Shown: piece after piece, positions 6,345-29,254 of the stretch
Layout: every line of letters begins with the position of its first letter
Numbering within the stretch: the stretch's first letter is position 1
Source of the DNA: Escherichia phage PECP20
DNA length: 64,000 nucleotides
Direction: 5' to 3' (one strand)
Sequence record: OQ873415.1
Program-made: the position numbers and the translations under genes
Notes under the pieces: generated by a model
Told to the model about the DNA's origin: nothing
What the model saw: the letters and a program-made list of their open reading frames with translations, nothing else
The model's database searches: none

Positions 6345-6387
6345 AGTTGATAGGTCTATAATAACATAACCATAGACCTTGTAAACA
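6345..6387 (-). promoter_or_regulatory. early promoter cassette
   Basis: Minus strand GTTTAC-N17-TATTAT, with inverted repeat GGTCTAT...ATAGACC. Confidence 0.6.
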
Positions 6388-6388
6388 A

Positions 6389-6676
6389 CTAAAAGAAACT
6401 TTTTTCAGTATTTTTTCCACTGAACCAAACAGACTTCGGGATTTTTTGTAATTTTTCAGACTTAAGTTTCTCTTCCTGTTCTTTCTTATATACTCCCTTG
6501 TCGTACTGGAGCATCTCTAGGGCATTCTTTTGCAAACGATCTAAGGTAATTAAGGCTTTAGTTTTTCCTTTCAAGGAAGAGTCCTGGCGAACTTCCTCGC
6601 TATATTGCATCGTAGAACTAACCATACGATGTGCATACAGTTCGACTGCGGCTTTGATTTTTTGCATAAAATCCAT
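6389..6676 (-). CDS. hypothetical protein, 95 aa
   Basis: ORF track only. Confidence 0.5.
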   Translation of the reverse strand: MDFMQKIKAAVELYAHRMVSSTMQYSEEVRQDSSLKGKTKALITLDRLQKNALEMLQYDKGVYKKEQEEKLKSEKLQKIPKSVWFSGKNTEKSFF

Positions 6677-6814
6677 AACATATCCTCTTTGATTTGTACA
6701 TCATTATTTTTAAATATTTCTATGCCCTCAGTAGGTTCCTGGTGTCCTTCTTTGAGGTAAGCCATATGGTTATTAATCTTTGTGGCTTTTGTTACCTCAG
6801 GACTTCCTGTAAGC

Positions 6815-7816
6815 TTATTTCAGTAAAGTTACTTCAGAGATTTCCTCCCAACCATCTTTATCGGTTGAAATAAAATCTGCTACATAAAGAGCCGTACGTA
6901 ATGATACATTGCGAAGACGAGATACATTAGCCTTCATCCAGGACAATGCTTTATACGTTTCAGCATCAGTCAAGCCACGTTTCTGCATCATATCAGTAGA
7001 TAATATTACATCTTCAACTCGAACCATAATCTCTTCATTAGAGTGTACTCCAAGGTCGAGATACACTGAACGAGATACTAAAGCTTGAAGGTGTGGAGCA
7101 AGTTTCGAACCCCGTTCTAACTCTTTATCGATATCAACGTTTGTAATGAAAACGATAGTACCTTCAAACTCAAATTCTTTATCAATACCCTTATCCTCGA
7201 GATAAGATGACGCAGTGCTCCAACAAACTTTGCGTTTATCTCCGGTATCTAATGCTGCTTTAAGAAGGTTCAGGATGTCCATATCTGAGAATACGTCAAC
7301 GTCATCGATTAAGAGAACGCTGTCTTCATCACGGTTGAGCCAAAGTTGTTCGTAAAGGCCAATACCGGAGATTTTACCATTAATGCTTTTGTATTTGATG
7401 AAACCATTATCATTAGCATTATTAAGTGCTTTATCCAGAGAATACGTCTTACCAATACCAGCTGCACCTGAAATAATGAGTGAACGAATTTTGCCATCAA
7501 TAATGCCATTCGTCATCATGTTCATTACTTTAAAGCGTTTGTTGATACGAGTTTTCATATCTTCAGTGCTTTCAACAACTGCAACTGGTGACGTCTCAAC
7601 TCCTTCCATTACGATGTCTGATTTGAAGACCCATACTCCACGTTCAGAACCATCAATCATAACGAAAATTTTACCATCACCTAAGTGGGAACATTCAGGA
7701 TTAAGCTTTGCCGGGAACCATGTCTTTGTGGCAACATAAGAACCAGAGATTTCGTTATTACGATAGATACCTTTTTTGATTTGAACGTTGAACATTTTAT
7801 TCTCCAATTTACTCAT
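6815..7816 (-). CDS. P-loop NTPase (AAA-like ATPase) with about 110-aa N-terminal extension
   Basis: Walker A GAAGIGKT, Walker B VLLIDDVD, downstream FITN sensor-like segment; promoter cassette upstream. Confidence 0.75.
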   Translation of the reverse strand: MSKLENKMFNVQIKKGIYRNNEISGSYVATKTWFPAKLNPECSHLGDGKIFVMIDGSERGVWVFKSDIVMEGVETSPVAVVESTEDMKTRINKRFKVMNMMTNGIIDGKIRSLIISGAAGIGKTYSLDKALNNANDNGFIKYKSINGKISGIGLYEQLWLNRDEDSVLLIDDVDVFSDMDILNLLKAALDTGDKRKVCWSTASSYLEDKGIDKEFEFEGTIVFITNVDIDKELERGSKLAPHLQALVSRSVYLDLGVHSNEEIMVRVEDVILSTDMMQKRGLTDAETYKALSWMKANVSRLRNVSLRTALYVADFISTDKDGWEEISEVTLLK

Positions 7817-7824
7817 TTCGTTTC

Positions 7825-7863
7825 GATAGGTCTATAGTATCATATCCTAAAAGCATGTACACT
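7825..7863 (-). promoter_or_regulatory. early promoter cassette (variant -35)
   Basis: Minus strand GTGTACA...TACTATAGACCTATC. Confidence 0.5.
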
Positions 7864-7892
7864 ACTTTTTAAAAATATTTTGACCCCCTAAA

Positions 7893-7908
7893 GGGACCCG
7901 AAGGTCCC
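7893..7908 (-). terminator. GC hairpin with UUCG tetraloop (GGGACC-UUCG-GGUCCC)
   Basis: Perfect 6-bp stem; related copy at 25849-25870. Confidence 0.45.
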
Positions 7909-7985
7909 CACATTTACTTATCGCACTTAGCAACATAATTAGGCATATCACAGAATACGGAGCGTGTAACTACTCGACCCTTTGA

Positions 7986-8174
7986 CTATGCTTCAGTTGC
8001 TTGTCCGGCAGTGCTATTAATATAGCTCGATTTGATATTCTCAATACCCTGAGAATGTGATGCATTTACCGAACCGTTGGAAGGCCCAGAAGACTGGTTA
8101 CCACCAGCTCCTGTGGTAGCACCAACAGAGAATGCCATCATTACTGCGAATAAACCAATTGCTAATTTTTTCAT
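7986..8174 (-). CDS. small secreted protein, 62 aa, signal peptide plus G/S/N-rich tail
   Basis: N-terminus MKKLAIGLFAVMMAFSVGA looks like a signal peptide; hairpin downstream. Confidence 0.5.
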   Translation of the reverse strand: MKKLAIGLFAVMMAFSVGATTGAGGNQSSGPSNGSVNASHSQGIENIKSSYINSTAGQATEA

Positions 8175-8205
8175 ATTTACCTCAAGTTAAGGGTTATTTA
8201 TCTAC

Positions 8206-9195
8206 TTATTTATAGTAAGAATTATGATTTTCGAGATAGACTTGCTCAAGGAAATCATCCCAGAAACTCATATCTACTTTTTGTTGCATACCATTCTTGG
8301 CAGCTTGTTCTGACGCATGTTCAACTTGGTCAACGATATCTTCTAGGAATTCTTGTACAGTTTTAAACGTATGTTTACCAAGCTTAACATCGAGAATAAA
8401 TGGAGCATCCTGAAGTGGGTAAACCAGGTCGCCGGTTTTGTAAATTTCCAATAATTGAAGTCCACCACGACATGCATGACTCAATGCTTTCCAGTCAATA
8501 CCTTCGTTAGCTTCTGCTTTACGAGCACGTTCACCATAGTTCTCTTCCAGTTTAACCAGGATAGCATTGAACTCTTTATTGGTTAACGTGTCTTGGAATT
8601 TACGGTCTAACAGACTATAGAATGTTTGCTTACCTGTTTTCTCGTTTTCGGTTTCAACCCATGAAGCAAATTCACCTACAGGTAGAACATTCTTCATATG
8701 TGATAAACGAATTACTGCACCATTATCAAAGTATTGTCCCCATTCATTAGAACGTTTAAGGGCTTGACGAAGAACAGCCAGTCGAGAACCCTTGACACCG
8801 TATTTAGAAGCTTGCTTACGGACGTACCCTAAATAAGATTTCATGTTAGTGGTATAGAAACGAGACCTGTTATCTTGAATATACTTCCATACATCAGGCA
8901 AATCAGATTTAACTACTAGACTTGGTGGAGTATGAAGCATATCTAATGCGACGGTTTCACCATCTGCAGCTAGTTTAAAGAAATATTTGAGACTATATAA
9001 CTCATGGTCTACGTCGTCTTTTGTGTTCTTAGAAGATGTGTTATTCGTGTTCTTGCTCATATGTTCTTTAACGTTACCGGTCAAAATATCACGAGCATGA
9101 GGGACATAAATTTCTTTAAAATCGACGTCAGATTCAGGAGTAGACGTTCCATAAAGGTGGCTACCAAAGTAGCTTTTCATAATTGTTTTCATCAT
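8206..9195 (-). CDS. nucleotidyltransferase-fold protein (minimal-NTase signature) with about 200-aa C-terminal extension
   Basis: N-terminal GSHLYGTSTPESDVD fits the G-S-x3-G-x5-S-D-x-D pattern of Pol-beta-type nucleotidyltransferases; 329 aa. Confidence 0.7.
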   Translation of the reverse strand: MMKTIMKSYFGSHLYGTSTPESDVDFKEIYVPHARDILTGNVKEHMSKNTNNTSSKNTKDDVDHELYSLKYFFKLAADGETVALDMLHTPPSLVVKSDLPDVWKYIQDNRSRFYTTNMKSYLGYVRKQASKYGVKGSRLAVLRQALKRSNEWGQYFDNGAVIRLSHMKNVLPVGEFASWVETENEKTGKQTFYSLLDRKFQDTLTNKEFNAILVKLEENYGERARKAEANEGIDWKALSHACRGGLQLLEIYKTGDLVYPLQDAPFILDVKLGKHTFKTVQEFLEDIVDQVEHASEQAAKNGMQQKVDMSFWDDFLEQVYLENHNSYYK

Positions 9196-9665
9196 TTAGC
9201 CTTATATTCAAGAGTAGGACAGACTTTTTCTTTACGAGCTTTAAGGTATTCACCTATTAATGATTTCTTACGTTCAATAGGCTCAAGTCCATTTTTAATT
9301 CGTTCTTGGTTTTGCGCAATGAGCTCAATTTCTTTATAATATTTTCTGTCGTTATATTTGTCTAACAACCAAGACGGACCAATTACCAACCCGGTAGCAA
9401 TAAAAGCCATGACTGCTACAATTAAAATGCCTACACCAATTGAGGCTGGAACTAATGTCCATAGACTGCTAAAAACAAAGAATTTAGTTAAAATTTCCTG
9501 GCCAATGATTGTGACTGCTGCTAAAATCGCAAATCCAATAATTGAAACAGCCAATACCGGGATTAACGTTTTCCAAAAATAAGCACACAACGTTTTCGGA
9601 CGATTCCATGTACTATTGAACGCGGCATAAATTTTAAAGTGCCAAGAGTTTTCATTGATAATCAT
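9192..9665 (-). CDS. hypothetical membrane protein, 157 aa
   Basis: ORF track; two to three hydrophobic helices. Confidence 0.6.
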   Translation of the reverse strand: MIINENSWHFKIYAAFNSTWNRPKTLCAYFWKTLIPVLAVSIIGFAILAAVTIIGQEILTKFFVFSSLWTLVPASIGVGILIVAVMAFIATGLVIGPSWLLDKYNDRKYYKEIELIAQNQERIKNGLEPIERKKSLIGEYLKARKEKVCPTLEYKAK

Positions 9666-9674
9666 AATAATTCC

Positions 9675-10205
9675 TTATTTCAAAGTTGGGATAATAGAAT
9701 CGAGATAAGCTTTAAGAGCAACTGCTTCATCTTTGTCTAATGTAACGATATGTTGACGAAGGTCATCAATTTGACGAATAACTACAACATCGCCATCTTC
9801 ATAAGAAGGATTAACGCCTAGGACCGTTGTATAGTCAGGGCGGTCCTGATTTGTAATAAAAGCATTACGGCATTTAGCCCATTGAAGTTTGGCCTTTTTG
9901 GCTATTTCAGATTCCATTAATTCTTTCACCTTAGTGACGAATGTTTTCCAATTATTGATAGAAAGGCATTCATCTTCTGTTTCGATATTAACCCCACTAT
10001 AAAGACCGTGATAAAAACGAACTTGAAGGTCTTCATCGATGTTAATTACAGATGCATGGCCCGGCGGATTGAGTTTCAAAATCTTGTCCAGTTCCATAGG
10101 AAGAATAGTAACAGAATCATCTTCTTGTGTCAGAACGTAAGCATAACCACGTTTTTCGATACATAAATCACCAAACAACTCGGTTGTTTCAATTACAATT
10201 TTCAT
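9675..10205 (-). CDS. hypothetical protein, about 176 aa
   Basis: ORF track; start moved to ATG (MKIVIE...) because the track start is a TTG. Confidence 0.6.
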   Translation of the reverse strand: MKIVIETTELFGDLCIEKRGYAYVLTQEDDSVTILPMELDKILKLNPPGHASVINIDEDLQVRFYHGLYSGVNIETEDECLSINNWKTFVTKVKELMESEIAKKAKLQWAKCRNAFITNQDRPDYTTVLGVNPSYEDGDVVVIRQIDDLRQHIVTLDKDEAVALKAYLDSIIPTLK

Positions 10206-10206
10206 A

Positions 10207-10386: not shown

Positions 10387-10509
10387 TTTACCATACTCGT
10401 TTCAATAAGATTCACTATGCCGTTTACCATGTTATAAGTAAACATCGGATAATTGTATTGTACTACAACATAAGCGATAAGCAAAAGTTTCATTTTGTTC
10501 TCCGTTCGT

Positions 10510-10552
10510 TTTGGTAGGACTACTATAACATAGTCCTACCAAGATGTAAACT
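10510..10552 (-). promoter_or_regulatory. early promoter cassette with 9-bp inverted repeat
   Basis: Plus strand ggtaggactactataacatagtcctacc followed by gtaaac. Confidence 0.55.
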
Positions 10553-10754: not shown

Positions 10755-10764
10755 CATAATGTCC

Positions 10765-10943
10765 TCACATAATCTCGTTAACATACATTTGCAATTCGGT
10801 GTGGGCGTCGGCCATCTTTTTCATAGCTCTGTTAATGTCGATGTCTCCATCTTCGCAACCATGAGCATTTTCCCAATCAGATACCGCATTAGCGTACTCT
10901 TCAATCAAAAACATCAACTTAGAAATCTTTTCTTTACGTGTCA
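10765..10943 (-). CDS. hypothetical protein, about 59 aa
   Basis: ORF track ORF truncated to MTRKEKISKL... because the early promoter at 10962-11001 lies inside the longer ORF; RBS GGAG present. Confidence 0.45.
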
Positions 10944-10961
10944 TAACGTTCTCCTCTAGTA

Positions 10962-11001
10962 AGTAAGGACTACTATAACACATCTCAAGGAGAAGTAAAC
11001 T
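10962..11001 (-). promoter_or_regulatory. early promoter cassette
   Basis: Minus strand GTTTAC-TTCTCCTTGAGATGTGT-TATAGT; TTCTCCT complementary to downstream RBS AGGAGAA. Confidence 0.55.
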
Positions 11002-11011
11002 GTTAAATACC

Positions 11012-11043
11012 AAAAAGCCCCAACCATAAGGAAGGGGCTAGTA
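11012..11043 (-). terminator. rho-independent terminator downstream of rI
   Basis: Minus strand AGCCCC...GGGGCU stem followed by UUUUU. Confidence 0.55.
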
Positions 11044-11045
11044 AA

Positions 11046-14137: not shown

Positions 14138-14596
14138 CTAGATTTTAATCACTGCTTTAGAAGCTTTTCCTGGTAGTCGTTTACTGTTAATAATAGCCAT
14201 TCTACATTGAAGAGTCTTCATTTTGAATGTTGGATTTTCGCGACAGACTGTAAGTCCTAACCAAAGATTTCCATCAGTTATTTCTAAACGGCCTGGGCGA
14301 TATTCGACACCTTCGACAAAATCTTCATCAACATCTGGACGTGCCGGCATTGATAAAAATTCTGCAACTTCTTTAACATGATTTTTTACTTTATGAAATA
14401 ATTCAAAAACGTAATTCTCATCTATTTCTCTCTGGATGGCGCGATCTAAGAGATGTTGAGAATACTTGATATGAAAGCCTGGTAGTCCAAAAGACTTTGC
14501 AGCATCTTTTATACCGGCATTTATTTTGCGGAACTCCGTTTCAAAGATTCGACGGAGTTTATTACGGCGGATAAAAACTTCCGAATTGATAGTCAT
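14138..14596 (-). CDS. regB: site-specific RNA endonuclease RegB
   Basis: 152 aa closely matching T4 RegB as recalled (MTINSEVFIRRNKLRR...RMAIINSKRLPGKASKAVIK). Confidence 0.9.
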   Translation of the reverse strand: MTINSEVFIRRNKLRRIFETEFRKINAGIKDAAKSFGLPGFHIKYSQHLLDRAIQREIDENYVFELFHKVKNHVKEVAEFLSMPARPDVDEDFVEGVEYRPGRLEITDGNLWLGLTVCRENPTFKMKTLQCRMAIINSKRLPGKASKAVIKI

Positions 14597-14611
14597 TTTG
14601 ATTTCTCCTCT

Positions 14612-14655
14612 AGTTGACAGGTCTATAGTAACACAACTAGAGGAGAAGTAAACTA
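14612..14655 (-). promoter_or_regulatory. early promoter cassette upstream of regB with 12-bp inverted repeat spanning the -10 and RBS
   Basis: Plus strand ctcctctagttg (14605-14616) and caactagaggag (14634-14645) are exact reverse complements; gtaaac at 14649-14654. Confidence 0.6.
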
Positions 14656-14952
14656 CTCTTTGAAAGGAATTAACTTTTTAACTGCTTTAGATACTTCGTC
14701 ACGAACCTGATGGAAGTTCTTGAGCTGTTCAAGGCGTTGTTCGTAATACGCAATCTCATCTTCTTCAAGACAATCGTCAGCGTCTTCTTTCAGATATGCC
14801 TTGTACTCATTAAAGAGGGCCCATAGGCGGTTCTCAAAGTCATCAAGGCTTTGAATTTTCTTGTGCTTCGGAACAAGGCCAAAAGGATTGCTTTCAGTTA
14901 TGCGTCTAGATGCTTCATAATGAGTTCCAAAGCCTGATAGGATTTGAGCCAT
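14653..14952 (-). CDS. hypothetical protein, 99 aa
   Basis: ORF track. Confidence 0.6.
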
Positions 14953-16109: not shown

Positions 16110-16645
16110 TGCATTCCAATCACAAAAAATTGAGGACGAGCATTACCGCCGATGCAATATTTGCTTTTGCAACAGTGTTGGACTGTTTTAATATGTACAT
16201 TGTAAATCTTATCCATATCAGGAGCTTTAATAGGCTCGTCAATTATATACAGAATACGAGAAAGCGTTAATCCACGGAATTTAGAACCTTCATTGCCAAT
16301 AAAACTACGAACAGAATCAGTAAATAAACGGAATCGAATATCGTCGCTAGAATAACGAGAAAATTCTTTTTTAATGTTGCCAGCAGAAATTTTAGAATAA
16401 GCTGAAGTATTAGAAAGAACAATAACTGTTCCACCATCATACAGCCAATTAACAGCAAAATTAGTTACTGCGGTCGATTTACCTGATTGTCGGCCGCCGT
16501 CTAAACGAAGTGTACAGTACTGCTTGAGTACGTCTTCAAACGGTGGGATATAACCGTTCTTACAAATTTCTTCTACTCTAGCATCAGAATGGTGTGTAAA
16601 AGCATTCATCAGGGATAGATAAGGTCCAGTTAAAAATGTTCTCAT
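16106..16645 (-). CDS. hypothetical P-loop protein, 179 aa
   Basis: GGRQSGKST Walker A-like motif. Confidence 0.6.
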   Translation of the reverse strand: MRTFLTGPYLSLMNAFTHHSDARVEEICKNGYIPPFEDVLKQYCTLRLDGGRQSGKSTAVTNFAVNWLYDGGTVIVLSNTSAYSKISAGNIKKEFSRYSSDDIRFRLFTDSVRSFIGNEGSKFRGLTLSRILYIIDEPIKAPDMDKIYNVHIKTVQHCCKSKYCIGGNARPQFFVIGMQ

Positions 16646-16817
16646 TTAGTTTCTCTTAAGGTTGGGGCCATTCCATGGCACATGTTAGGTCCTTCGACTC
16701 GCTATGTAAACCCATTACCGCATTGCGCTCGACCTTATTACAGGTTGGAAAAGGTACATCACTCAGAGGACTCGACGTTCATGAGGAGAGGTTGCGTTTC
16801 CCTTTATTAGGCAAGAA

Positions 16818-17147
16818 TTATACTCTAGGCTTTTGAGCTTGTTTGGTATTGGATTCCCATGTGGCTTTGGTAATTTTGTTAGCGGCATAACCAAAGGCAT
16901 TAGATAGAACACCTTTAGAGTTGAATACATCCAATCCAATAAGTACACCGGCTGTGTTAAATTTAGGAGCAAAGTACGCATTAGTTTTAGAAAGAGCTTT
17001 TTTCAATTCAGGGTCTTGAACCAAGTCATCAAAAACGCCTTTACTATTTACTTTATATGTTACTTTGGGATTTTTACTTTCTTCGATAGCAGCTTTCTGT
17101 TCCGCAGATAATGTAACTTCAGTGATAAACTCTTGATATGTTTTCAT
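16818..17147 (-). CDS. internal-protein-like (capsid-targeted) protein, about 110 aa
   Basis: Start set at MKTYQEFITE, the N-terminal capsid targeting leader typical of T4 internal proteins cleaved by prohead protease. Confidence 0.6.
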   Translation of the reverse strand: MKTYQEFITEVTLSAEQKAAIEESKNPKVTYKVNSKGVFDDLVQDPELKKALSKTNAYFAPKFNTAGVLIGLDVFNSKGVLSNAFGYAANKITKATWESNTKQAQKPRV

Positions 17148-17154
17148 TTTTTCC

Positions 17155-17568
17155 TTAGTAAATTGATTTACCATAGTATTTGTACCAAGTCGGACGTTGA
17201 GCAATTTTTTCATCTAAGCGTGCTTGACTTATCGCAATGGACACTTCGGACGGGACATAATTATTACGAAATTCGGCAGGAATGTCGGAAATATCCTGGA
17301 CTGTCGTGTCCTTGATTTTGAAACCACGTTTCAAACATTCAGCGATTAGCTCGATTTGTCGTAAACGTAAAAATTCAAGTTTGTCGTAAAAGAATGTTAC
17401 GTGACCTGTGCCTAAGATAAATGTTGGAGAGATTTTAAAATCCTTTACACGTTTACCGTTTTGAACATGTTTACGGACTGCACCAAATACGCGTGGTAAT
17501 TCACGATACTCAGCCATAAGATGTTGGTCGGACAGTTCAGAAACAAGTGTTAAATTGATACGAGTCAT
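17155..17568 (-). CDS. denV: endonuclease V, pyrimidine dimer DNA glycosylase
   Basis: Start at [12 protein letters not shown]...; about 138 aa, near-identical to T4 DenV as recalled. Confidence 0.92.
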
Positions 17569-17589
17569 AATTTCCTCCAAGTAGTTGAT

Positions 17590-17626
17590 GAATGTATAGT
17601 ATCAAAACCCTTGGAGGAAGTAAACA
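17590..17626 (-). promoter_or_regulatory. early promoter cassette upstream of denV with 10-bp inverted repeat
   Basis: Plus strand ttcctccaag (17572-17581) and cttggaggaa (17610-17619) flank TATAGT; gtaaac at 17620-17625. Confidence 0.6.
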
Positions 17627-17908: not shown

Positions 17909-18393
17909 ATATACGCTTTCCAAGTTCCTGTTTTAAATGTTGAGATTACGCGTTTCGCGCGATTAGGTGTCTGACGATACCATTTAGATTGAGCTAGATT
18001 TACTGCCGCTTCATCCCAACGTTTCTGTTTAAGCATACGAAGAGAATTAGTAAAACCGGCGACTCCTGCTACACCCATTTGGAAGACCATATTGACCAAT
18101 GCACACCGACGAACTGCATCTAAAGAATCATATACCGGTTTAAGTTTAGCATTACCCAAGATTCCGCGAACGGCTTTATCGACGTCTTCATTAAATAGCT
18201 TTTCAGCCTCATCAAGGGTAATTGTACCGTTGCATTTACGACCGATCATTCTGTCAAGTTCAGCTTTAGCTACGGCTAAAGACTGGTTCTTTGTTACCAA
18301 GTGGCCTATGCCAATCGTCCAAAAGCCTTCAGTGTCTTTGTATAAAGTCAGTCTAAGACCTTCGTCATTACGAAGCATTTCAAATATATTCAT
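17905..18393 (-). CDS. e: lysozyme (endolysin), T4 e type
   Basis: [32 protein letters not shown]... near-identical to T4 lysozyme as recalled; catalytic E11 and D20 conserved. Confidence 0.95.
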
Positions 18394-18428
18394 AATACCT
18401 CCCACGTTTATAGGAGGTATTTATTACT
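18394..18428 (-). promoter_or_regulatory. RBS-sequestering hairpin with embedded late-promoter-like sequence upstream of lysozyme gene e
   Basis: mRNA sense AUACCUCC-UAUAAACGUG-GGAGGUAU then AUG; arms pair the Shine-Dalgarno; AATAAATA just upstream. Confidence 0.6.
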
Positions 18429-18886
18429 TATAGGATGGTAGTGAGCACCTTATATAATGATTTGCCCATTACATATTCCCATTGAGAAGGTTTAATTAAA
18501 GCGAATGCATCAAATTCAGGAATCTGTCGTCCGTCTGGGAATGTATGATAGGAATTACAAACACTGTTTCTGAATTGCTCGTGCTCTACAGGGATGGTAT
18601 ATAGGAACAGATGAATATTCTTATTATCTGAGTAATGATGTTCACCTAGGTCTTTCAGGAAGACAGGGTCATATTGTGTAAACCCAGTTTCTTCTTCGCA
18701 TTCACGAATAGCGGCTTCAATAGGAGATTCGCCAGGTTCGACATGGTCTTTAGGAATATCCCACCGATGAGCTAAAGAACCTTTAGGACGAGAACCAGTT
18801 ACACGACCCATGAATAACTCTTTATCTTTTGTCATGAAGATAATACCGGCTGATAGTTCTTTCACTTTATTTTTCTTACTCATCAT
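18428..18886 (-). CDS. nudE: Nudix hydrolase NudE
   Basis: 152 aa with Nudix box GHVEPGESPIEAAIRECEEETG. Confidence 0.85.
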   Translation of the reverse strand: MMSKKNKVKELSAGIIFMTKDKELFMGRVTGSRPKGSLAHRWDIPKDHVEPGESPIEAAIRECEEETGFTQYDPVFLKDLGEHHYSDNKNIHLFLYTIPVEHEQFRNSVCNSYHTFPDGRQIPEFDAFALIKPSQWEYVMGKSLYKVLTTIL

Positions 18887-20287: not shown

Positions 20288-20593
20288 TTATTTTCCTCGA
20301 CATTCTTTAATGAAATTTTCTAGATTGGTAGATTCAATAGCTTTTTTACGAGCTTCTGCGTGTTCTTCTTCAGACAATTTACATTTATAATTGACCCAGA
20401 CGTTATGGTCGAAACTAGTCGTGGCATATAATAACAATGCTCCAACGAATAGCAAAAACGGCGATAAGAATACAAAACCAGGAACACCATCCATACTGTA
20501 AGCCTTTTGTAATACTGCAACAGAAAGAGCTGCGTAAAAAAGTGATACAAATATTGTTAAAAGACCAATTCGGTTGGTTTCGCCTAATTTCAT
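20288..20593 (-). CDS. hypothetical membrane protein, 101 aa
   Basis: ORF track; two hydrophobic helices; C-terminal ENFIKECR. Confidence 0.55.
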   Translation of the reverse strand: MKLGETNRIGLLTIFVSLFYAALSVAVLQKAYSMDGVPGFVFLSPFLLFVGALLLYATTSFDHNVWVNYKCKLSEEEHAEARKKAIESTNLENFIKECRGK

Positions 20594-20614
20594 AATATTC
20601 TCCTCATGTTTTAA

Positions 20615-20652
20615 TAGGACTACTATAACATAGTCCTATCAGTTTGTACACT
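20615..20652 (-). promoter_or_regulatory. early promoter cassette with inverted repeat
   Basis: Plus strand ataggactactataacatagtcctat then gtacac. Confidence 0.55.
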
Positions 20653-20870
20653 TATTTTGACATTTCTTCGATGTCACGACGATACCCATCACGAACTTCA
20701 CGAAGAGCTTCAAGGCCACACATAGGCTCGATACCAGTAATGTGAACTTGATTAATCTGATACTCTACATCTTCTAACTGAGCGAAAACATAACGACGTT
20801 CTGCTGCACAACCAGGTTTAGCTTTACCGAAACGTTTATTCAAAGTAGTCATTTTTATATCTCCATTCAC
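20652..20870 (-). CDS. hypothetical protein, 72 aa
   Basis: ORF track. Confidence 0.5.
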   Translation of the reverse strand: MNGDIKMTTLNKRFGKAKPGCAAERRYVFAQLEDVEYQINQVHITGIEPMCGLEALREVRDGYRRDIEEMSK

Positions 20871-20879
20871 TCATTTGTT

Positions 20880-20921
20880 TTGATAGGTCTATAGTATCAA
20901 CAACTACAGACCTTGTAAACT
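20880..20921 (-). promoter_or_regulatory. early promoter cassette
   Basis: Plus strand tgataggtctatagtatcaacaactacagaccttgtaaac. Confidence 0.55.
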
Positions 20922-21917: not shown

Positions 21918-22169
21918 TTAAATTTCACGACATGCGATATTATATTCATCCCAGAGGTCATCATGTGAAGCCTCTACCAATGGAACGATTGTACCGTTTA
22001 TGTCTTCATTATAAGGGCAAATTGTACAGTGCGCATCTTCGAATCGGATGCCTTTGTGTTCAGATTTTTTATAACGCATATCGAATATCTTTGCAAACTT
22101 TTCACGAGTAATGGTTTTACCAACCACTTTGGTTCCGATACTTTCGTAATAAATCATTGTGGACTCCAT
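21918..22169 (-). CDS. hypothetical protein, 83 aa
   Basis: ORF track; promoter cassette upstream. Confidence 0.55.
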   Translation of the reverse strand: MESTMIYYESIGTKVVGKTITREKFAKIFDMRYKKSEHKGIRFEDAHCTICPYNEDINGTIVPLVEASHDDLWDEYNIACREI

Positions 22170-22175
22170 TTGTTT

Positions 22176-22216
22176 TGATAGGACTACTATAACATAGCCC
22201 TATCTTGTTGTAAACT
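22176..22216 (-). promoter_or_regulatory. early promoter cassette
   Basis: Plus strand gataggactactataacatagccctatcttgttgtaaac. Confidence 0.55.
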
Positions 22217-22663: not shown

Positions 22664-22957
22664 TTAACATATTTGAGAAGAGGAGATCCATACACCGGAA
22701 GTAACGATACCATTTTCGTCAACTTCACCGCCATAGTTTTCAATTTCATCGCGCATCCAGCGACTACATTCATAACCAACAGGATAGTAAGTACGACCTG
22801 AACCATATTCACCTACATCAAATGAAACACCATACTTATCTGCGATAATAGTAGCTTCATTCTCGATATGGTCTTGAGCACGAAGAAGTTTGCTGATTGC
22901 TTCTTCTGCAGATTTAGCGTCATTGTATTCAGGGATTACGATTTCAATTTTACTCAT
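22664..22957 (-). CDS. small protein, 97 aa, WxSSSxxC C-terminal family
   Basis: Ends GVWISSSQIC. Confidence 0.55.
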   Translation of the reverse strand: MSKIEIVIPEYNDAKSAEEAISKLLRAQDHIENEATIIADKYGVSFDVGEYGSGRTYYPVGYECSRWMRDEIENYGGEVDENGIVTSGVWISSSQIC

Positions 22958-23313
22958 TTTCTACATTCCTTAATAAAGTTTTCGATTGTTTCATTTTCAC
23001 GTTTAGCTAGGAGTTCATTATAACTAATCATTTGAGAAGCGTAAACCTTTTTATTTTTCTTGTTGTGGTTTATAAAATCGTAGTAAAAATAGACTACAGT
23101 ACAAAATGATGCGATGGATGCAAAGGCTTGGGTATACCGTAAGTCCTGCCATTGGTCTGTGAATCCACCAGTGTTCCCTATAAATCCTAACACAACGCCG
23201 TCAATAAGAAATCCAACTAATCCAAAGGCAAATCCCATGCCAATACTCATAATAAAAATTAGAATGTTCTCACCAAGAGAAGGCCATACGGTTAAGAGTT
23301 GAGGCTTTTGCAT
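22954..23313 (-). CDS. hypothetical membrane protein, 119 aa
   Basis: ORF track; hydrophobic helices; C-terminal ENFIKECRK. Confidence 0.55.
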   Translation of the reverse strand: MQKPQLLTVWPSLGENILIFIMSIGMGFAFGLVGFLIDGVVLGFIGNTGGFTDQWQDLRYTQAFASIASFCTVVYFYYDFINHNKKNKKVYASQMISYNELLAKRENETIENFIKECRK

Positions 23314-24307: not shown

Positions 24308-24901
24308 TTATTTCAAAGAGTTAATATATTCTTGTACATCAGCAGAAGTGGTTTCGACACCAGCTGGAGTGCCATTGAACGTTTCAACACGAGTCAGAGT
24401 GTCTTCGATATCAACCTTAGTCAGTGCAGCGATTTCAATTACATCGTCAGCGGTAGAGATACCAAGGGCATTGGCTGCTCGAGTTTCACGAATGTATTCG
24501 AGTTTGATTGCCAGGTTCTGACGAGCATCGTCAAGTTCAACCACCTTACGAGCAATTTCAATTCGCATAGCGGCATACCCGTCAGCTTTTGTATTAAGTT
24601 GTTCGGCAGTTCGACGATACAGAAGACCAAGCTTAGCATGCATGGTAACATCTTGTCCTTCAGCCAGGAGTTTACGAATTTCACGTTCCTTAGAAGCGGC
24701 TTGCTTGTTCTTTTCATTAACAAGTTCGCGAATACGTTTTTCTTCATTAATAGATTTAACAGAAGCCGTTTTTAGTTCTTTGATTTGGGTAATCAACTTA
24801 TCTGCAGCTGCGTTATACTGTTCTTCGACAGTCAGATTTTTAGCCATGGCAGTACCCAGTTTAGTGCGAATGAATTCAACAAGTTTCTTCAGAGTGTTCA
24901 T
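24308..24901 (-). CDS. coiled-coil protein, 197 aa, possibly PspA/IM30-like
   Basis: Long heptad-rich helical sequence; resemblance to PspA is by eye only. Confidence 0.6.
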
Positions 24902-24972
24902 ATTATTACCTTTTCAATTAGTGGGTTTATTATCCATGAGAGCATTATACTCTGCTCTCAAGAGTTTGTAAA

Positions 24973-25200
24973 TTATTTTTTAATCAAATTGACATAAAAC
25001 TTGGCGTCTTCGGGGTGCATGCCTTCGCAGTATTCTTCAACCATGAACTTCTTAACAGCTTCATAAGGACCACTCAGATTAAGCTCGGTTGTCCAGAACT
25101 TGGAATCTTGTACTGAATCGATACGAACTTCAGGGTGACGGTTGCGAATAACTTCTTCTGTGTATTCATAATCAACGACATCAATACTAACTTTAGCCAT
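24973..25200 (-). CDS. hypothetical protein, 75 aa
   Basis: ORF track; RBS and promoter cassette upstream. Confidence 0.5.
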   Translation of the reverse strand: MAKVSIDVVDYEYTEEVIRNRHPEVRIDSVQDSKFWTTELNLSGPYEAVKKFMVEEYCEGMHPEDAKFYVNLIKK

Positions 25201-25219
25201 TTTGTTTCTCCTCTTGATT

Positions 25220-25260
25220 TGATAGGTCTATAGTAACACCATCCTTGGCGTTTGTACATC
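25220..25260 (-). promoter_or_regulatory. early promoter cassette
   Basis: Plus strand gataggtctatagtaacaccatccttggcgtttgtacat. Confidence 0.5.
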
Positions 25261-25762
25261 ATTTATTTTTAATTTTACAAATTTTTCCAGCTTCGATACA
25301 CGCGGCATAGATGATGCTCTGGGCAATTTTATTGCTAGTAGACCTTGCAATCACACTAAGAACAATTTCTTTTTCTTCACCACCCCATCCCCAGCTATTT
25401 TGTCCATAGGTACCTTTAACTACGGCCGAAACTTCAACAGAACGTCCACCATCAGAAGTTTTAACATCTACAACCCAATCGCCATCTTTCTCTTCAACTC
25501 GTGGTTTATCCCAAGAAATACTAATATATGATTCACTGCCGATAGAAGTTGCCGGGTTTTTCTCTATCGTAAGCCCTTCACTTTCCAGCCATTCAATAGT
25601 ATTTGCACATAAATCCGAAGAACACCTCATCGGAAAGCGGCAAGATTTTTCACCTTTAGAGGCGGCTTCATACGTCTTTTCTAAAATACGCTTTTGCACG
25701 TTTTTAAAAATAGTTTCAGCAGATTCTTCAGATTTTTTATTCAGTTCAGTATAAAGACTCAT
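25259..25762 (-). CDS. hypothetical protein, 167 aa
   Basis: ORF track; promoter cassette upstream. Confidence 0.6.
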   Translation of the reverse strand: MSLYTELNKKSEESAETIFKNVQKRILEKTYEAASKGEKSCRFPMRCSSDLCANTIEWLESEGLTIEKNPATSIGSESYISISWDKPRVEEKDGDWVVDVKTSDGGRSVEVSAVVKGTYGQNSWGWGGEEKEIVLSVIARSTSNKIAQSIIYAACIEAGKICKIKNK

Positions 25763-25784
25763 AACATTTTCCTTTGTGGTTGAT

Positions 25785-25821
25785 ATGTCTTATAGTATCA
25801 TGTCCTTAGAAGAAGTAAACA
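25785..25821 (-). promoter_or_regulatory. early promoter cassette
   Basis: Plus strand tcttatagtatcatgtccttagaagaagtaaac. Confidence 0.5.
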
Positions 25822-25848
25822 ACTTTTTCAGTAAGTTGTAGACCCCCT

Positions 25849-25870
25849 AATGGGGACCGAAGTCCCCATT
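25849..25870 (-). terminator. hairpin AAUGGGGAC-UUCG-GUCCCCAUU
   Basis: Perfect 9-bp stem with UUCG loop downstream of IP-like gene. Confidence 0.5.
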
Positions 25871-25872
25871 CT

Positions 25873-26499
25873 TTACTTACGAGTTTTTGCATACTGAGCA
25901 GCGTCAGCAGCCAAACGACCTGCTTGTCGAAGTTTTTCTTTAATCTCATCATGAAGTGGTTGAGTATACTTCAAACCTTCGATAGTCAAATAAAGACGAT
26001 AAAGGTCTGGGGTATCAAGGTTGTTGATATGTTGGCCATTACGAAGACTATTGAATTCACGAACGAGTGAAGATGTATCAGATTCAATATCACGAACAAG
26101 CGAAGATAGTTGTTTATATTTTTTTTCCAGGCTAGAAGTATCAAACTTAAGAGCAGGAGCTTTAGGAGTTGCTTTTACTTCCGGCTTAGGCTCAGGTTTT
26201 GCTACTGCTTTAGGGGTCGCAGGTTTAGGAGTGGTAGGAGCAGGTTTTACTTTAGGCGAACCAGATTTAGCAGAAACACCACCACTAACAATATCTTTGA
26301 ATGCTTTAGAAGCTCTGTAATATTCTTTTTGGCTGGAAGTGTCGATACCGTACATGGCTTGAACGTTTTTGAAAAACTCTGTACTAGTTTTTGTACCAGA
26401 AATAGCATCGTAAGCAGCTTGCCATTTCTCTTTTGTCATACGTACACCGGCTTCGGTGATTACTTCCGTTTCGGCTAAAAATTCATTAAAAGTATACAT
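25873..26499 (-). CDS. internal-protein-like capsid-targeted protein, 208 aa, with Pro/Lys/Ala-rich linker
   Basis: N-terminal MYTFNEFLAETE resembles the T4 capsid targeting leader; central KPAPTTPKPATPKAVAKPEPKPEVKATPKAP low-complexity tract. Confidence 0.6.
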   Translation of the reverse strand: MYTFNEFLAETEVITEAGVRMTKEKWQAAYDAISGTKTSTEFFKNVQAMYGIDTSSQKEYYRASKAFKDIVSGGVSAKSGSPKVKPAPTTPKPATPKAVAKPEPKPEVKATPKAPALKFDTSSLEKKYKQLSSLVRDIESDTSSLVREFNSLRNGQHINNLDTPDLYRLYLTIEGLKYTQPLHDEIKEKLRQAGRLAADAAQYAKTRK

Positions 26500-26542
26500 T
26501 GATGGTCCTTAGAAAGTAGGTTTATTGTTTACTATATTTATA

Positions 26543-26575
26543 CAAAAAAGCCCCAACCTTTCGGAAGGGGCTATA
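26543..26575 (-). terminator. rho-independent terminator downstream of the tRNA-like RNA
   Basis: Minus strand AGCCCC-UUCCGAAAGGUU-GGGGCU then UUUUUU; same stem as the 11012-11043 terminator. Confidence 0.55.
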
Positions 26576-26611
26576 TACCTTGTCGGGGTTTCCACCTACT
26601 AGGTAAGTGTT

Positions 26612-26772
26612 TGTACGAAACGCCGGGATTCGAACCCGGTTATTAAGCAGTTGACGCTACTCAATATTTTTAAAAGGCCATATCTCTACCATATCCGAAC
26701 GTCCCGTCAAAAACGCTACTCGGCTTACGGCAAAGATATTTCCTCGAATCGATAATTCTGTGCGCCGTTTCT
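26612..26772 (-). ncRNA. tRNA-like stable RNA, about 158 nt, with canonical T-arm and acceptor-like stem
   Basis: Minus-strand T-arm CCGGG-TTCGAAT-CCCGG (plus coords 26623-26639); 3' CGTTTCG can pair with GAAACG near 26766-26772; no standard anticodon or D arm found by eye; terminator hairpin follows. Confidence 0.35.
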
Positions 26773-26874
26773 GCTGTGATGTAAGGGGATATTAACGAAT
26801 CATAAAGATTTATTAAGACCAGTCCCTACTCAGGGAACATCAGTCCGACGACTTGCCGGTAGCGACCCGGCTTC

Positions 26875-27219
26875 TTATTTTGGCATATCATCAATTTGCT
26901 CTCGACGCCGACGCCATAGATTAATCGCTTCATAGGCACATTCTGCGTTTGGTATATGACGGCAATAATATAATGATTCGCGTTTCTGGAACCGATGTTG
27001 TAATGGAATTTCGTTTAAAAGGTCTTTACGGTCAAAGTATTCAAAACTAGTTAACCCAGAACGGTTTTTAAGAAACTTCCAATGTCCGAATTCATTTTGA
27101 ACATAGATGTAATCGGCATGCTGATACAGCGAATTAATCAATCGATGAGAAATAACTGTATCATATTCGTTAAAATAAAACGTTAAATCATGAACTACCA
27201 GATAAATATTGCCTTTCAT
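26875..27219 (-). CDS. hypothetical protein, about 114 aa, between tRNA genes
   Basis: Track ORF trimmed to ATG (MKGNIYLVVHDL...) because the longer ORF would overlap tRNA-Arg; GAGG RBS. Confidence 0.5.
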   Translation of the reverse strand: MKGNIYLVVHDLTFYFNEYDTVISHRLINSLYQHADYIYVQNEFGHWKFLKNRSGLTSFEYFDRKDLLNEIPLQHRFQKRESLYYCRHIPNAECAYEAINLWRRRREQIDDMPK

Positions 27220-27237
27220 ATTTTCCTCACTTAAAGT

Positions 27238-27314
27238 TGGTCGAGACAGAAGGATTCTAACCTTCAACCTACGGATTAGAAGTCCGTTGCTCCATACAAT
27301 TGAGCTATGCCTCG
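27238..27314 (-). tRNA. tRNA-Arg (anticodon UCU)
   Basis: Hand-folded cloverleaf: acceptor CGAGGCA/TGTCTCG, D-stem GCTC/GAGC, anticodon stem ACGGA/TCCGT with loop CTTCTAA, T-arm GAAGG-TTAGAAT-CCTTC, encoded CCA. Confidence 0.75.
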
Positions 27315-27320
27315 AATATA

Positions 27321-27394
27321 TGGCCCAGACCAGATTCGAACTGGTAACCTTTCCCTTATGAGGGGACTGCTGCTAACCATTGAGCTACAGGGCC
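27321..27394 (-). tRNA. tRNA with CAU anticodon (Ile or Met type)
   Basis: Hand-folded: acceptor GGCCCTG/CTGGGCC (one mismatch), anticodon loop CTCATAA, T-arm ACCAG-TTCGAAT-CTGGT, CCA encoded; D-arm irregular. Confidence 0.55.
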
Positions 27395-27454
27395 TAAATA
27401 ACTTTCTATTATGAAAGGCACTTTAGAGCACCTTTGGTAATAGAGAGTATGAAT

Positions 27455-27482
27455 TAATAATAACACATAATTCTTAAAGCAA
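27455..27482 (-). promoter_or_regulatory. possible MotA-dependent middle promoter upstream of the tRNA cluster
   Basis: Minus strand TTTGCTTTA (MotA-box-like) then 12 nt then TATTAT. Confidence 0.4.
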
Positions 27483-27989
27483 ATCAATCATTTTAACGGT
27501 TGGCAAAACGATTTCTTCTTCAATATAAGCAAATTCGACACGTTCAACTACACGCAAGAAATCGTAATCATAGTATTCAGAAGCATAGCCAAGAATATCA
27601 ATAAGTCCTTGAGATATCTCATCGCCTTTCACAAAGAACAGGTCGAATACGCGGGCTTCGTCTTCTTCAGATTTATCACCAAGGTCTACTTCGATGCCAA
27701 AGACCTTTTTAATAAATTCCGGTTGGAGTTGGTCTGAGAACAGTCCTTCAACCAGATATTCGTAGATAATAAGCGAGCAACGACCGAATGGTGTATTACC
27801 GCAATAACGTTCGGCTTTGGTGCTAGAATGACGGCTCTTAAATTTCTTCAAGAGATATTTAAACTGTTGGAGCTCATGCTCTTCCACTTCAAACAATGTT
27901 TTGGTTTTATAGTTGTCACCATCACTTTCATAGGTAGTGACATCAATTACGTAGCCCTTAGGAATTGTACTGCCTAATCGAATATTCAT
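27474..27989 (-). CDS. hypothetical protein, 171 aa
   Basis: ORF track. Confidence 0.6.
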   Translation of the reverse strand: MNIRLGSTIPKGYVIDVTTYESDGDNYKTKTLFEVEEHELQQFKYLLKKFKSRHSSTKAERYCGNTPFGRCSLIIYEYLVEGLFSDQLQPEFIKKVFGIEVDLGDKSEEDEARVFDLFFVKGDEISQGLIDILGYASEYYDYDFLRVVERVEFAYIEEEIVLPTVKMIDLL

Positions 27990-27993
27990 TTAA

Positions 27994-28284
27994 TCACCGT
28001 ACCATATTAATGTAATTATATTCAATGCAACGTAATTTCAAAGGATTCTTGAAAATATCATATTCAAGAGGGCCTTTTTCTGTTTCAATAAAGAAATCAA
28101 AGTTAACTGTGTTAAATTTATCATCTTCACAGAGTAATTTAACCTGTGAAGACGAACGGTCAATGTAAACCTTTTCAACTTCAAAATATGTTAAAATGCC
28201 ATAATCATCGATCAATGCTTTAGCTGCACGTTGATCGCTTTCGTATCCATTCTCGACAGATTTTACTTTAGCATAAAGAATCAT
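27994..28284 (-). CDS. hypothetical protein, 96 aa
   Basis: ORF track. Confidence 0.55.
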   Translation of the reverse strand: MILYAKVKSVENGYESDQRAAKALIDDYGILTYFEVEKVYIDRSSSQVKLLCEDDKFNTVNFDFFIETEKGPLEYDIFKNPLKLRCIEYNYINMVR

Positions 28285-28643
28285 GAGTGTTCCACCACTT
28301 CAAAAGTATGTGCATTTACAATCTGGTACCAGTCAAAATTTTCTTCAGCATTTTTGTAGATTTCACGAAGAGCTTCAGCAGTTTTTCCTGTAGCAACAAG
28401 ATCGTCAATACCGCCAAGAGGATAACAGTCGTAACCAGCAAACAGAAGGAAATTAATAGTTTCTGTAGGTTCTGGATGCAGTGTACCATTGTCATCGACT
28501 ACTTCAAAGAACATATAACCAGGCGATTTAGATTTAATCCAAGCCCATGCTTGAGCTGCTGAATCAAATGGTCTGCGTATCAAACGACAATCAGGGTCTT
28601 TAGAAGGATTTGCTTCAAAATCTGCATATACATGATATTTCAT
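28281..28643 (-). CDS. hypothetical protein, 120 aa
   Basis: ORF track. Confidence 0.55.
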   Translation of the reverse strand: MKYHVYADFEANPSKDPDCRLIRRPFDSAAQAWAWIKSKSPGYMFFEVVDDNGTLHPEPTETINFLLFAGYDCYPLGGIDDLVATGKTAEALREIYKNAEENFDWYQIVNAHTFEVVEHS

Positions 28644-28850
28644 TTACTCACCTTTTGCAATTTTATCCATAACGATAGCGATTAAGCCGATTAGAAATGC
28701 TACTACCAATGAGATAGAGTTTTCAGTTGTTGTCAGTAGTCCACAAATGAATCCTACAAACATCGAAAAGCTAAAAGCCATTGAAGCAATTACTACAGCA
28801 ACATTACGAATCAGTTCAGCGCGTTTCATTTTATTTCTCCATTTACTCAT
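28644..28850 (-). CDS. small membrane protein, 68 aa
   Basis: ORF track; two hydrophobic helices. Confidence 0.5.
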   Translation of the reverse strand: MSKWRNKMKRAELIRNVAVVIASMAFSFSMFVGFICGLLTTTENSISLVVAFLIGLIAIVMDKIAKGE

Positions 28851-28856
28851 TTTGTT

Positions 28857-28898
28857 TTGATAGGACTATTATAACATAGTCCTATCGGCATGTAAACT
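28857..28898 (-). promoter_or_regulatory. early promoter cassette with inverted repeat
   Basis: Plus strand gataggactattataacatagtcctatc then gtaaac. Confidence 0.55.
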
Positions 28899-28900
28899 AC

Positions 28901-29188
28901 TTACAGAAGAGTTTTTGCAATAATTTTAAGCTGAGCTACAGAAATGTGCTTAGCTTTAAACAGTGCAGTCTCTTCAGCCGGAGAGATAACAATAGTAGCG
29001 CCATCTTTCTTAGCAGACCATCCGTCCCCTAAGTAAACAGTACCTTTTACTTCTTCACCGTCAACCAGACTAATCATTGGTTTACCCTCACGTCCTTTAT
29101 TTGTTTTAATAACTTCAGAAGTAAGGGATGCTTCGGTCAGAGTAGAAACGTTAGCAACAGGTGATATAAATTCTTTATAGGTTTTCAT
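28901..29188 (-). CDS. ipI: internal protein I-like capsid-targeted protein, 95 aa
   Basis: MKTYKEFIS... leader; located just upstream of 57B as ipI is in T4; body diverged. Confidence 0.6.
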   Translation of the reverse strand: MKTYKEFISPVANVSTLTEASLTSEVIKTNKGREGKPMISLVDGEEVKGTVYLGDGWSAKKDGATIVISPAEETALFKAKHISVAQLKIIAKTLL

Positions 29189-29211
29189 TTTATTTCCTTG
29201 GGGCTGTTTAT

Positions 29212-29254
29212 TTGATAGGATGATAGTAACACACCATCATCTTTATGTAAACTG
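29212..29254 (-). promoter_or_regulatory. early promoter cassette upstream of ipI-like gene
   Basis: Plus strand gataggatgatagtaacacaccatcatctttatgtaaac. Confidence 0.55.

Follow-up and report, generated by a model that had tools for sequence, protein, structure and literature searches.

Early promoters with complementary spacer and leader arms as probable promoter/stem-loop cassettes in an RB69-like Mosigvirus genome

The DNA analysed here, referred to as the window, is a stretch of 64,000 nucleotides from Escherichia phage PECP20 (record OQ873415.1), a Mosigvirus (RB69-like, Straboviridae) genome, and the elements in question are short repeats which stand between the genes of its early region. 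Positions 6345-29254 of the window form a minus-strand early-gene block which, according to annotated relatives, contains nrdC.x, mobD.x, rI, tk, vs, regB, vs.3-8 and denV, and continues with e, nudE, e.2-e.8, tRNA-Arg/Met, trna.2-4 and ipI. In a megablast search this block matched many Mosigvirus coliphages with 96-98% identity over 94-100% of the query, LH01 being the top match, and it is one hyperplastic region among those of T4-type genomes. Judging from the sequence, the repeats are very probably sigma-70-dependent early promoters of a T4-type (Mosigvirus) phage, mostly built as promoter/stem-loop cassettes of the PeSL type (an early promoter combined with a stem-loop), in which the spacer and the discriminator or leader are kept complementary.

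In a preliminary description of this DNA, at least 15 minus-strand intergenic sites of shared design had been claimed for positions 6345-29254. By means of a regular-expression scan and a pattern search we recovered exactly 15 of them, together with three further family members outside that interval (3725, 4745 and 61672; each site is named after the first base of its -35 element). All cassettes have in common the hexamer (G/A)T(T/G)TAC, a spacer of 17-18 nt, TAnnnT and then AG(A/T)CCTATCAA; they also share a GT-rich extended -10 and an A/T-rich upstream region of 20-45 nt. A direct-repeat finder independently grouped them into families D1-D6. The pattern TTTAC-N16-18-TAYWRT gave 17 matches, all but one of them on the minus strand, which is the strand of the early genes; shuffled sequences gave 2.49 +/- 1.5. 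The family is visible only with this T4-specific motif, since a generic sigma-70 promoter scanner did not separate the region from its shuffles (36 vs 38.9; 43 vs 35.6). Within positions 1-34000, 18 of the 71 gene junctions bear a cassette. The cassettes are intergenic, lie within the hyperplastic region, and each ends in the Shine-Dalgarno (SD) sequence and start codon of the downstream gene.

The identity of these sites was compared with published predictions. Nolan et al. 2006 (PMC1524935) predicted 58 early promoters (Pe) of phage RB69; we retrieved RB69 46-80 kb and set the cassettes against their coordinate list. Sixteen of the 18 cassettes of positions 1-34000 map to listed RB69 Pe sites with a constant offset of 14 nt. 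The two without a match are 20920, whose gene is absent from RB69, and 2745, which lies inside a coding region. The agreement with T4 and RB69 early promoters (Miller 2003; Hinton 2010, PMC2988021) extends to GTTTAC at -36..-31, the GT-rich extended -10, TAnnnT, C-rich positions -3..-1 and the A-rich UP region. In the numbering of Nolan et al. 2006 the last T of the -10 is followed by the start site at a distance of 7 nt, with RB69 being C-rich at -3..-1; since TACTAT-agaCCT-A fits this numbering, the A of ATCAA was taken as +1. The site at 2716-2745 (minus strand) is a perfect GTTTAC-N18-TATAAT which falls within nrdC.3, at the 3' end of its coding region. Neither the AGNCCTATC block nor a stem is present there, and the site is absent from the published RB69 promoter list; it could have arisen by chance or could act as a weak promoter within the gene.

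The level of pairing was assessed by folding each cassette, from the -35 to the ATG, as RNA against 200 dinucleotide shuffles. Eight of the 15 cassettes (10551, 14653, 17625, 20651, 20920, 22215, 24973 and 28897) gave z-scores of -2.5 or lower (range -2.5 to -5.1), and two more were marginal (-1.65 for 6386, -1.9 for 29252). The earlier statement that most sites carry an inverted repeat is thus slightly generous, as the other five have none by this measure. Within the family, spacers paired with their own downstream 34 nt at -10.5 kcal/mol, in comparison to -7.9 +/- 0.6 kcal/mol for permuted partners (p<=1e-4), a comparison in which composition and shared motifs are held constant. We also analysed 328 cassettes (287 distinct) from the window, T4, 16 IMG/VR regB loci, a pattern scan and the genome L001 (mar005P1); matches from the IMG/VR pattern scan, mostly single chance matches in unrelated contigs, were kept only after a filter for SD, ATG and open reading frame. 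In 24% of the 287 cassettes, but in 2.1% of the permuted pairs, spacer and leader could form a perfect Watson-Crick helix of 8 bp or more.

Of the hairpin-negative cassettes, two (7862 and 25820) are preceded, just before the -35, by a GC-rich UUCG hairpin, and a third (11000) by a canonical terminator; 25259, as well as 3725 and 4745, has a small hairpin within the spacer. Site 23046 is the only one of the 15 without any stem-loop within or beside the promoter. The two UUCG hairpins (GGGGACCTTCGGGTCCC...GGGGGTC) are near-identical; they lie at about 7882-7912 and about 25849-25880 (both minus strand), directly upstream of the two cassettes that have no repeat spanning the -10. In this respect the place of the hairpin seems to be complementary between cassettes. 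The canonical intrinsic terminator, AGCCCC...GGGGCT with a T-run, occurs twice on the minus strand, at 11007-11040 and 26540-26573, with 88% identity, and its first copy lies directly upstream of cassette 11000.

Orthologous promoters of T4 carry inverted repeats in the same places with unrelated sequences. The T4 arms are AGTTGACAAGATTA/TAATCTTGTCAACT for mobD.2, CCTCTTGACTG/CAGTTAAGAGG for regB, TCTCCTGTAG/CTACAGGAGA (also written CTCCTGTAG/CTACAGGAG) for denV, TCCTAGAATTGTGA/TCACAATTCTAGGA for ipII, TGATGAGGTA/TACCTCATCA for ipI, ATAGGGT/ACCCTAT for trna.4 and ATTAGA/TCTAAT for e.6. Such unrelated arms that nevertheless pair, in T4 and in other lineages, include perfect helices of 12-15 bp. 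In an SD-anchored pair table for regB, which covers Mosigvirus, T4 and three IMG/VR lineages, 6 of the 8 pairs within the SD core show double (compensatory) changes, and at one pair of cassette 10551 the window has G-C, RB69 has G.T and L001 has A-T. RNAalifold returned no structure for nine regB cassettes aligned with MAFFT, since the register of the helix is not the same in all lineages. Taken together, the permutation tests and the differing yet pairing orthologous arms are good evidence that selection acts on the pairing and not on the sequence of the arms, as the preliminary description had proposed from arms that vary while their complementarity is kept. The arms quoted there were found as well: GGTAGGACT/AGTCCTACC at 10511-10542 (12 bp, perfect), GGTCTAT/ATAGACC at 6386 and GATGAT/ATCATC at 29252. 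A sequence-specific palindromic operator is ruled out, the arms being unrelated both between promoters and between orthologues.

The inverted repeats do span the -10, as described earlier, but this wording covers two geometries: arms which abut the -10 (class A) and a spacer which pairs with the SD (class B). In class A (6386, 10551, 20651, 20920, 22215, 24973, 28897 and 29252) the 3' arm begins -2 to +1 from the end of the -10 hexamer, and the loop corresponds approximately to the extended -10, with a median of 8 nt. In class B (14653 of regB, 17625 of denV and, weakly, 11000) the 5' arm is an anti-Shine-Dalgarno sequence in the spacer, while the 3' arm, at a distance of 8-23 nt from the -10, contains the SD and ends 3-8 nt before the ATG; the loop of 15-32 nt encloses the -10 and the start site. 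The nrdC.8 promoter belongs to class A in the window, whereas in T4-like phages it belongs to class B. The 5' arm is upstream of the deduced start site in either class, and therefore the hairpin would be impossible on the cassette's own transcript and could form only on read-through RNA or in DNA.

Table 1. Cassettes of the window, each from -35 (higher coordinate, first base of the hexamer) to start codon; z, folding z-score; Pe, matching predicted early promoter of RB69
Position	Strand	Gene or site	Promoter and hairpin	z	RB69 Pe
3665..3725	-	nrdC.5	spacer hairpin AACCAaggaTGGTT		51019
4687..4745	-	nrdC.6	spacer hairpin same as 3725; family D5, 88% identical to 3725		52042
6327..6386	-	nrdC.8 homologue	GTTTAC; class A arms AGGTCTAT/ATAGACCT around -10 TATTAT	-1.65	53683
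7793..7862	-		GTGTAC ... TACTAT; no repeat spanning the -10	+1.09	55018
10491..10551	-	mobD.2-like gene	class A, 12-bp perfect arms TTGGTAGGACTA/TAGTCCTACCAA	-5.11	57689
10942..11000	-	mobD.2a	weak class B, spacer TTCTCCT pairs with AGGAGAA (SD)	-0.47	58138
14594..14653	-	regB	class B, 14-bp arms TTCTCCTCTAGTTG/CAACTAGAGGAGAA; -10 and start site enclosed, SD buried	-4.93	
17566..17625	-	denV	class B arms TTCCTCCAAG/CTTGGAGGAA; perfect helix 10 bp	-4.10	
20591..20651	-		GTGTAC; class A arms ATAGGACTA/TAGTCCTAT	-3.97	
20850..20920	-		class A arms AGGTCT/AGACCT, lengthened by G.U pairs in the fold	-3.27	
22155..22215	-		class A arms GATAGGGCTA/TAGTCCTATC, one G.T	-3.11	69254
22955..23046	-	promoter-like site, weakest member	GTTTAC ... 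TATAAT; long leader, no stem-loop; hidden Markov model score of the RB69 Pe only 4.9	+0.53	70143
24899..24973	-	e.6	ATTTAC ... TATAAT; class A arms TGAGAGCA/TGCTCTCA	-2.50	
25198..25259	-		ATGTAC ... TACTAT; small hairpin within spacer (GCCAaggaTGGT)	-1.02	
25760..25820	-		no repeat spanning the -10	+0.73	72936
28827..28897	-	trna.4	class A, 11-bp arms GATAGGACTAT/ATAGTCCTATC	-4.04	
29186..29252	-	ipI-type internal protein	class A arms GATGAT/ATCATC, lengthened by G.U pairs	-1.86	77187
61610..61672	-	isolated member	GTTTAC ... TACTAT AGACTTATCAAC (regular-expression scan, pattern search)		

The class B arrangement was examined by partition-function folding of the two kinds of transcript. For regB, the probability that the SD is unpaired was 0.01 on read-through RNA and 0.85 on the transcript from its own promoter; for denV the corresponding values were 0.00 and 0.47. 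Thus, in transcripts from upstream promoters the SD of both genes is paired in silico, within helices of 14 and 10 bp, respectively, and the deduced start site lies between the arms, so that the own transcript does not include the 5' arm. With the spacer acting as an anti-SD, the ribosome-binding site would be buried in read-through RNA, which would be neither translated nor cut by RegB at GGAG, and it would be free on RNA begun at the gene's own promoter. A regB gene that is silent on read-through RNA is plausible, since regB has been described as requiring tight control and RNA structure as shielding GGAG from RegB. The leader of gene e (lysozyme, ATG at 18393), at 18395-18440 on the minus strand, may serve as a positive control for class B: it contains the classic T4 arrangement AATACCTCC-TATAAACG-TGGGAGGTATT, with the SD buried in a hairpin whose loop bears a late-promoter-like TATAAA.

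The class A hairpin encloses the extended -10 at about 15-25 nt before the SD, and its arms would occupy the only two unconstrained stretches of a compact promoter, namely the spacer and the discriminator. Such a hairpin most likely acts as an intercistronic RNA structure (an attenuator, a processing barrier or a 3' barrier) which would insulate neighbouring cassettes. For both classes together, we tentatively propose, as something possible rather than probable, that the promoters of regB, denV, T4 nrdC.8 and mobD.2a encode an anti-SD in their spacer, so that the gene would be translatable and RegB-cleavable only on own-promoter transcripts and silent on read-through ones, and that the class A hairpins are insulators at the RNA level and not terminators. 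If the class B part is true, it would explain how early genes under tight control, regB for example, are kept silent on abundant read-through transcripts, and these genes would be expressed strictly for as long as their own short-lived early promoter is active. The spacer serving as anti-SD would then be a simple design rule.

The cassettes had also been suggested to mark recombination boundaries of accessory genes. We compared positions 1-34000 with eight sequences, namely five annotated Mosigvirus relatives and three contigs from IMG/VR, by alignment and dynamic-programming chaining of high-scoring segment pairs, and obtained 22 distinct events, each of at least about 50 bp, with 36 breakpoints. 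Nine of the 36 fall within cassette footprints, which make up 4.6% of the sequence (p=2.6e-5 vs random positions), and 29 of the 36 are at gene junctions of some kind. In four events (E6, E13, E16 and E17) a cassette-gene-cassette arrangement stands opposite a single cassette, which is chimeric where the flanking cassettes can be distinguished. A 262-bp gene between cassettes 20920 and 20651 is present here and absent in the IMG/VR contig L124 and in RB69; both of these have one chimeric cassette, whose upstream part is as in 20920 and whose downstream part is as in 20651. L124 has an extra gene between two cassettes at 7862, where the window has a single cassette (E6); L140 has an extra gene between two cassettes at 24973 (E16); and L001, L140 and L141 have an extra gene of 167+45 bp between duplicated cassettes at 25259 (E17). 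Further breakpoints are at 14657, where a replacement (the vs.3 swap) adjoins the regB cassette, at 23046 (a deletion in L124) and at 28899, where a replacement by swap of the internal-protein gene starts. The 30-50 bp of near-identity between cassettes may also provide joints for homologous recombination by which single genes are added or removed.

Recombination may also break the pairing. At 26060-26400 (minus strand) L001 has the cassette ATTTAC ATCTAAGTAAGTTTATGT TATAGT AGTCCTATC, in which the 3' arm of the family stands next to a non-complementary spacer, as expected from a crossover inside the loop. The cassettes are one joint type among several. A second one is the internal-protein leader MKTYQEF/MKTYKEF with its conserved ribosome-binding site (17117-17163 and 29166-29220, minus strand); relatives have insertions of 320-886 bp whose joints lie within this leader and not in the promoter. 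A third one is the short direct repeat CGAGAATATTTTAAATGA at overlapping stop/start signals at 1450 and 1731. It flanks a 280-bp gene (1450-1731, minus strand) which is absent from L001, L140 and L142, and this suggests that the gene was lost by short-repeat recombination with no cassette involved. The proposal about recombination boundaries therefore holds in part: some breakpoints do coincide with cassettes when relatives are compared, but most are at other gene junctions. The genes nrdC.9 and nrdC.10 are separated by a 138-bp gap, in which a degenerate half cassette at 6693-6718 (minus strand), made up of an A/T-rich UP region and ATGTAC with a poor -10, adjoins a 152-bp deletion in L124. 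The stretch 16645-16860 (minus strand), downstream of an internal-protein gene, is unusually long and GC-richer, with two poor promoter-like matches (16711 and 16759), and relatives break there at differing points (16748 and 16821).

Several results weigh against the picture of early promoters with a selected hairpin that acts in RNA and serves as a joint. Five of the 15 cassettes (7862, 11000, 23046, 25259 and 25820) have no significant hairpin when folded against shuffles. The start sites, on which the exclusion of the 5' arm from the own transcript depends, were inferred from the numbering of a published promoter logo. For class A, partition-function folding showed no consistent change in SD accessibility between read-through and own transcripts, and a T-rich tail (at least 5 T in 8 nt, scored after helices of at least 7 bp) follows 0 of 43 helices in class A and 2 of 43 in class B. 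Counts of G.T against A.C mismatches, taken as a sign of selection at the RNA or at the DNA level, disagree: internal mismatches gave 13:2 (10:2 unique; chance ratio 0.48), a type-blind helix finder gave 16:5 against a 55% baseline (p=0.08), and variant states among close orthologues gave 9:9. Finally, cassettes hold 11 of the 29 gene-junction breakpoints, in comparison to 25% of all junctions, a modest excess which is not significant (p=0.09).

The tail composition also bears on whether the stem-loops are terminators or attenuators of upstream transcripts, each cassette being an insulated terminator-plus-promoter unit, which we regard as unlikely. This explanation draws on Arbiol 2010 (PMC2839356), where one RB49/phi1 PeSL stem-loop cut downstream lacZ about as much as rrnB T1, and it agrees with the stability of the hairpins (-14 to -22 kcal/mol), which would exist only on read-through RNA. 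However, the tails following the helices are about 50% A, and on the counts given above canonical intrinsic terminators are ruled out; the real ones, at 11007-11040 and 26540-26573, are separate GC-rich hairpins with a T-run. The RB49/phi1 stem, the sole one functionally tested in the literature, is G4...C4, whereas the stems here are AT-rich, and its authors themselves called the T-even versions weaker, AT-rich analogues. Moreover, class B arms coincide exactly with the SD, for which a terminator gives no reason. Since hardly any of the hairpins has a T-rich tail, the terminator function of PeSLs is not simply transferable to these cassettes.

The same repeats could act in DNA, as cruciforms which expose the -10, as structure-specific targets of proteins (for example in early-promoter shut-off) or as triggers of recombination. 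In favour of this are the class A loop, which is exactly the extended -10, the statement in the literature that the mechanism of T4 early-promoter shut-off is unknown, the 9:9 mismatch count with no G.U preference, and the recombination joints within cassettes. We nevertheless consider it improbable, as the two other mismatch counts lean to G.U on the sense strand, arms with no conserved sequence exclude a sequence-specific operator, and loops of 15-32 nt in class B are unfavourable for cruciform extrusion while the SD, a signal read in RNA, forms its 3' arm. Both the loop size and a 3' arm that coincides with the SD speak for the RNA level in class B. Hardly credible to us is a complementarity with no function at all, inherited from a palindromic ancestral cassette which spread by duplication or gene conversion, or produced by templated quasi-palindrome mutation. 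The cassettes of the window do form sequence subfamilies (TAGGACT..AGTCCTA, four times; AGACCTATC, six times) which are 65-88% identical over 43-87 nt, and recombination between cassettes is documented. Against such an origin, orthologous promoters in T4 and other lineages have unrelated arms that pair, 12-15 bp perfect helices included, and permuted spacer/leader pairs of the same family pair far worse. Recombination in the loop gives mismatched arms, as in L001 (ATTTAC...GTTTATGT TATAGT AGTCCTATC), and therefore selection is required to keep the arms paired; templated mutation might re-establish the pairing, but the coincidence of class B arms with the SD would be left without explanation. 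Action in RNA, with the physiological roles proposed above for the two classes, would account for the cassettes better than these alternatives.

Apart from the cassettes, the only Rfam and ARAGORN matches in the window are tRNA-Arg(TCT) and tRNA-Met(CAT) at 27238-27394 (minus strand); the Rfam search at gathering thresholds gave nothing beyond these two tRNAs.

The known system closest to the whole family is that of the PeSLs, and the preliminary description, which likened the sites to mobile promoter-stem-loop cassettes of T4-type genomes, had named the right one. PeSLs were described in RB49/phi1, where the stem-loop is commonest between the -35 and -10 or overlapping the -10 (Arbiol 2010, PMC2839356), and later work added those of PST/T4 and nt-1/KVP40 (Comeau et al. 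2014, PMC4122927); they cluster in hyperplastic regions and have been linked to modular shuffling (PMC2839356, PMC4122927). The features that define them can be recognised in the sequence of the cassettes, which thus probably belong to this class: a promoter motif, a stem-loop within or next to the promoter, and an intergenic position in a hyperplastic region. Shared with PeSLs are the order of early promoter, AT-rich upstream region and stem-loop followed by SD and ATG, the setting among small accessory genes and, at some of the breakpoints, indel or replacement joints with chimeric or "half" cassettes; the consensus of the PST/T4 type, TTTACW-N17-TAYWAT (PMC4122927), is matched by the cassettes of the window. 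Even the alternative hairpin places at 7862, 25820, 11000, 25259, 3725 and 4745 are other stem-loop positions listed for PeSLs, in which the stem-loop may overlap a box, precede the -35 or stand just ahead of the start site. The design is thus real but largely already published for other T4-type phages. The differences lie in the stems, which are G4...C4 in RB49/phi1 and AT-rich, variable and without U-tails here, and in the distinct subclass with spacer-SD pairing. The papers on PeSLs do not treat the RB69-like Mosigvirus, from which the window comes, and Nolan et al. 2006 (PMC1524935) treat the RB69 early promoters as promoters only, with no mention of stems, palindromes or inverted repeats. 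The present analysis extends the PeSL picture to this large genus. It also adds quantitative cross-lineage evidence of selection on pairing, which the original papers did not provide, and the division into two geometries, and it gives concrete events of single-gene gain or loss joined inside cassettes, which are of interest for genome evolution. The missing T-tails are likewise new, and call for caution, since T4-type stems have no terminator tails.

Class B has its own counterpart in the hairpins of late T4 genes. Experiments have established the design of anti-SD, promoter in the loop and SD in T4 genes e, soc, 49 and I-TevI (PMC3014915), and the reviews (PMC3014915, PMC2988022) list such hairpins in T4 e, soc, 49, I-TevI and segB and in Aeh1 mobE. 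Class B shares with those of e, soc, 49 and I-TevI the anti-SD 5' arm, the promoter in the loop and the SD in the 3' arm, and the logic is alike: long transcripts are predicted to be untranslatable, and transcripts from the nested promoter translatable. All documented cases of nested promoters are, however, late promoters of late genes (PMC2988022). In place of a late promoter (gp55, TATAAATA), class B has an early sigma-70 promoter, GTTTAC...TAnnnT, before the early genes regB and denV. An early-promoter version of the SD-sequestering hairpin was not found described in the literature searched, and this variant is possibly the only new point of the design. Class B works like the late-promoter SD-sequestering family but stands outside its membership as currently described; if our reading is true, it would be an early-phase equivalent of the hairpins which e, soc, 49 and I-TevI have at their late promoters.

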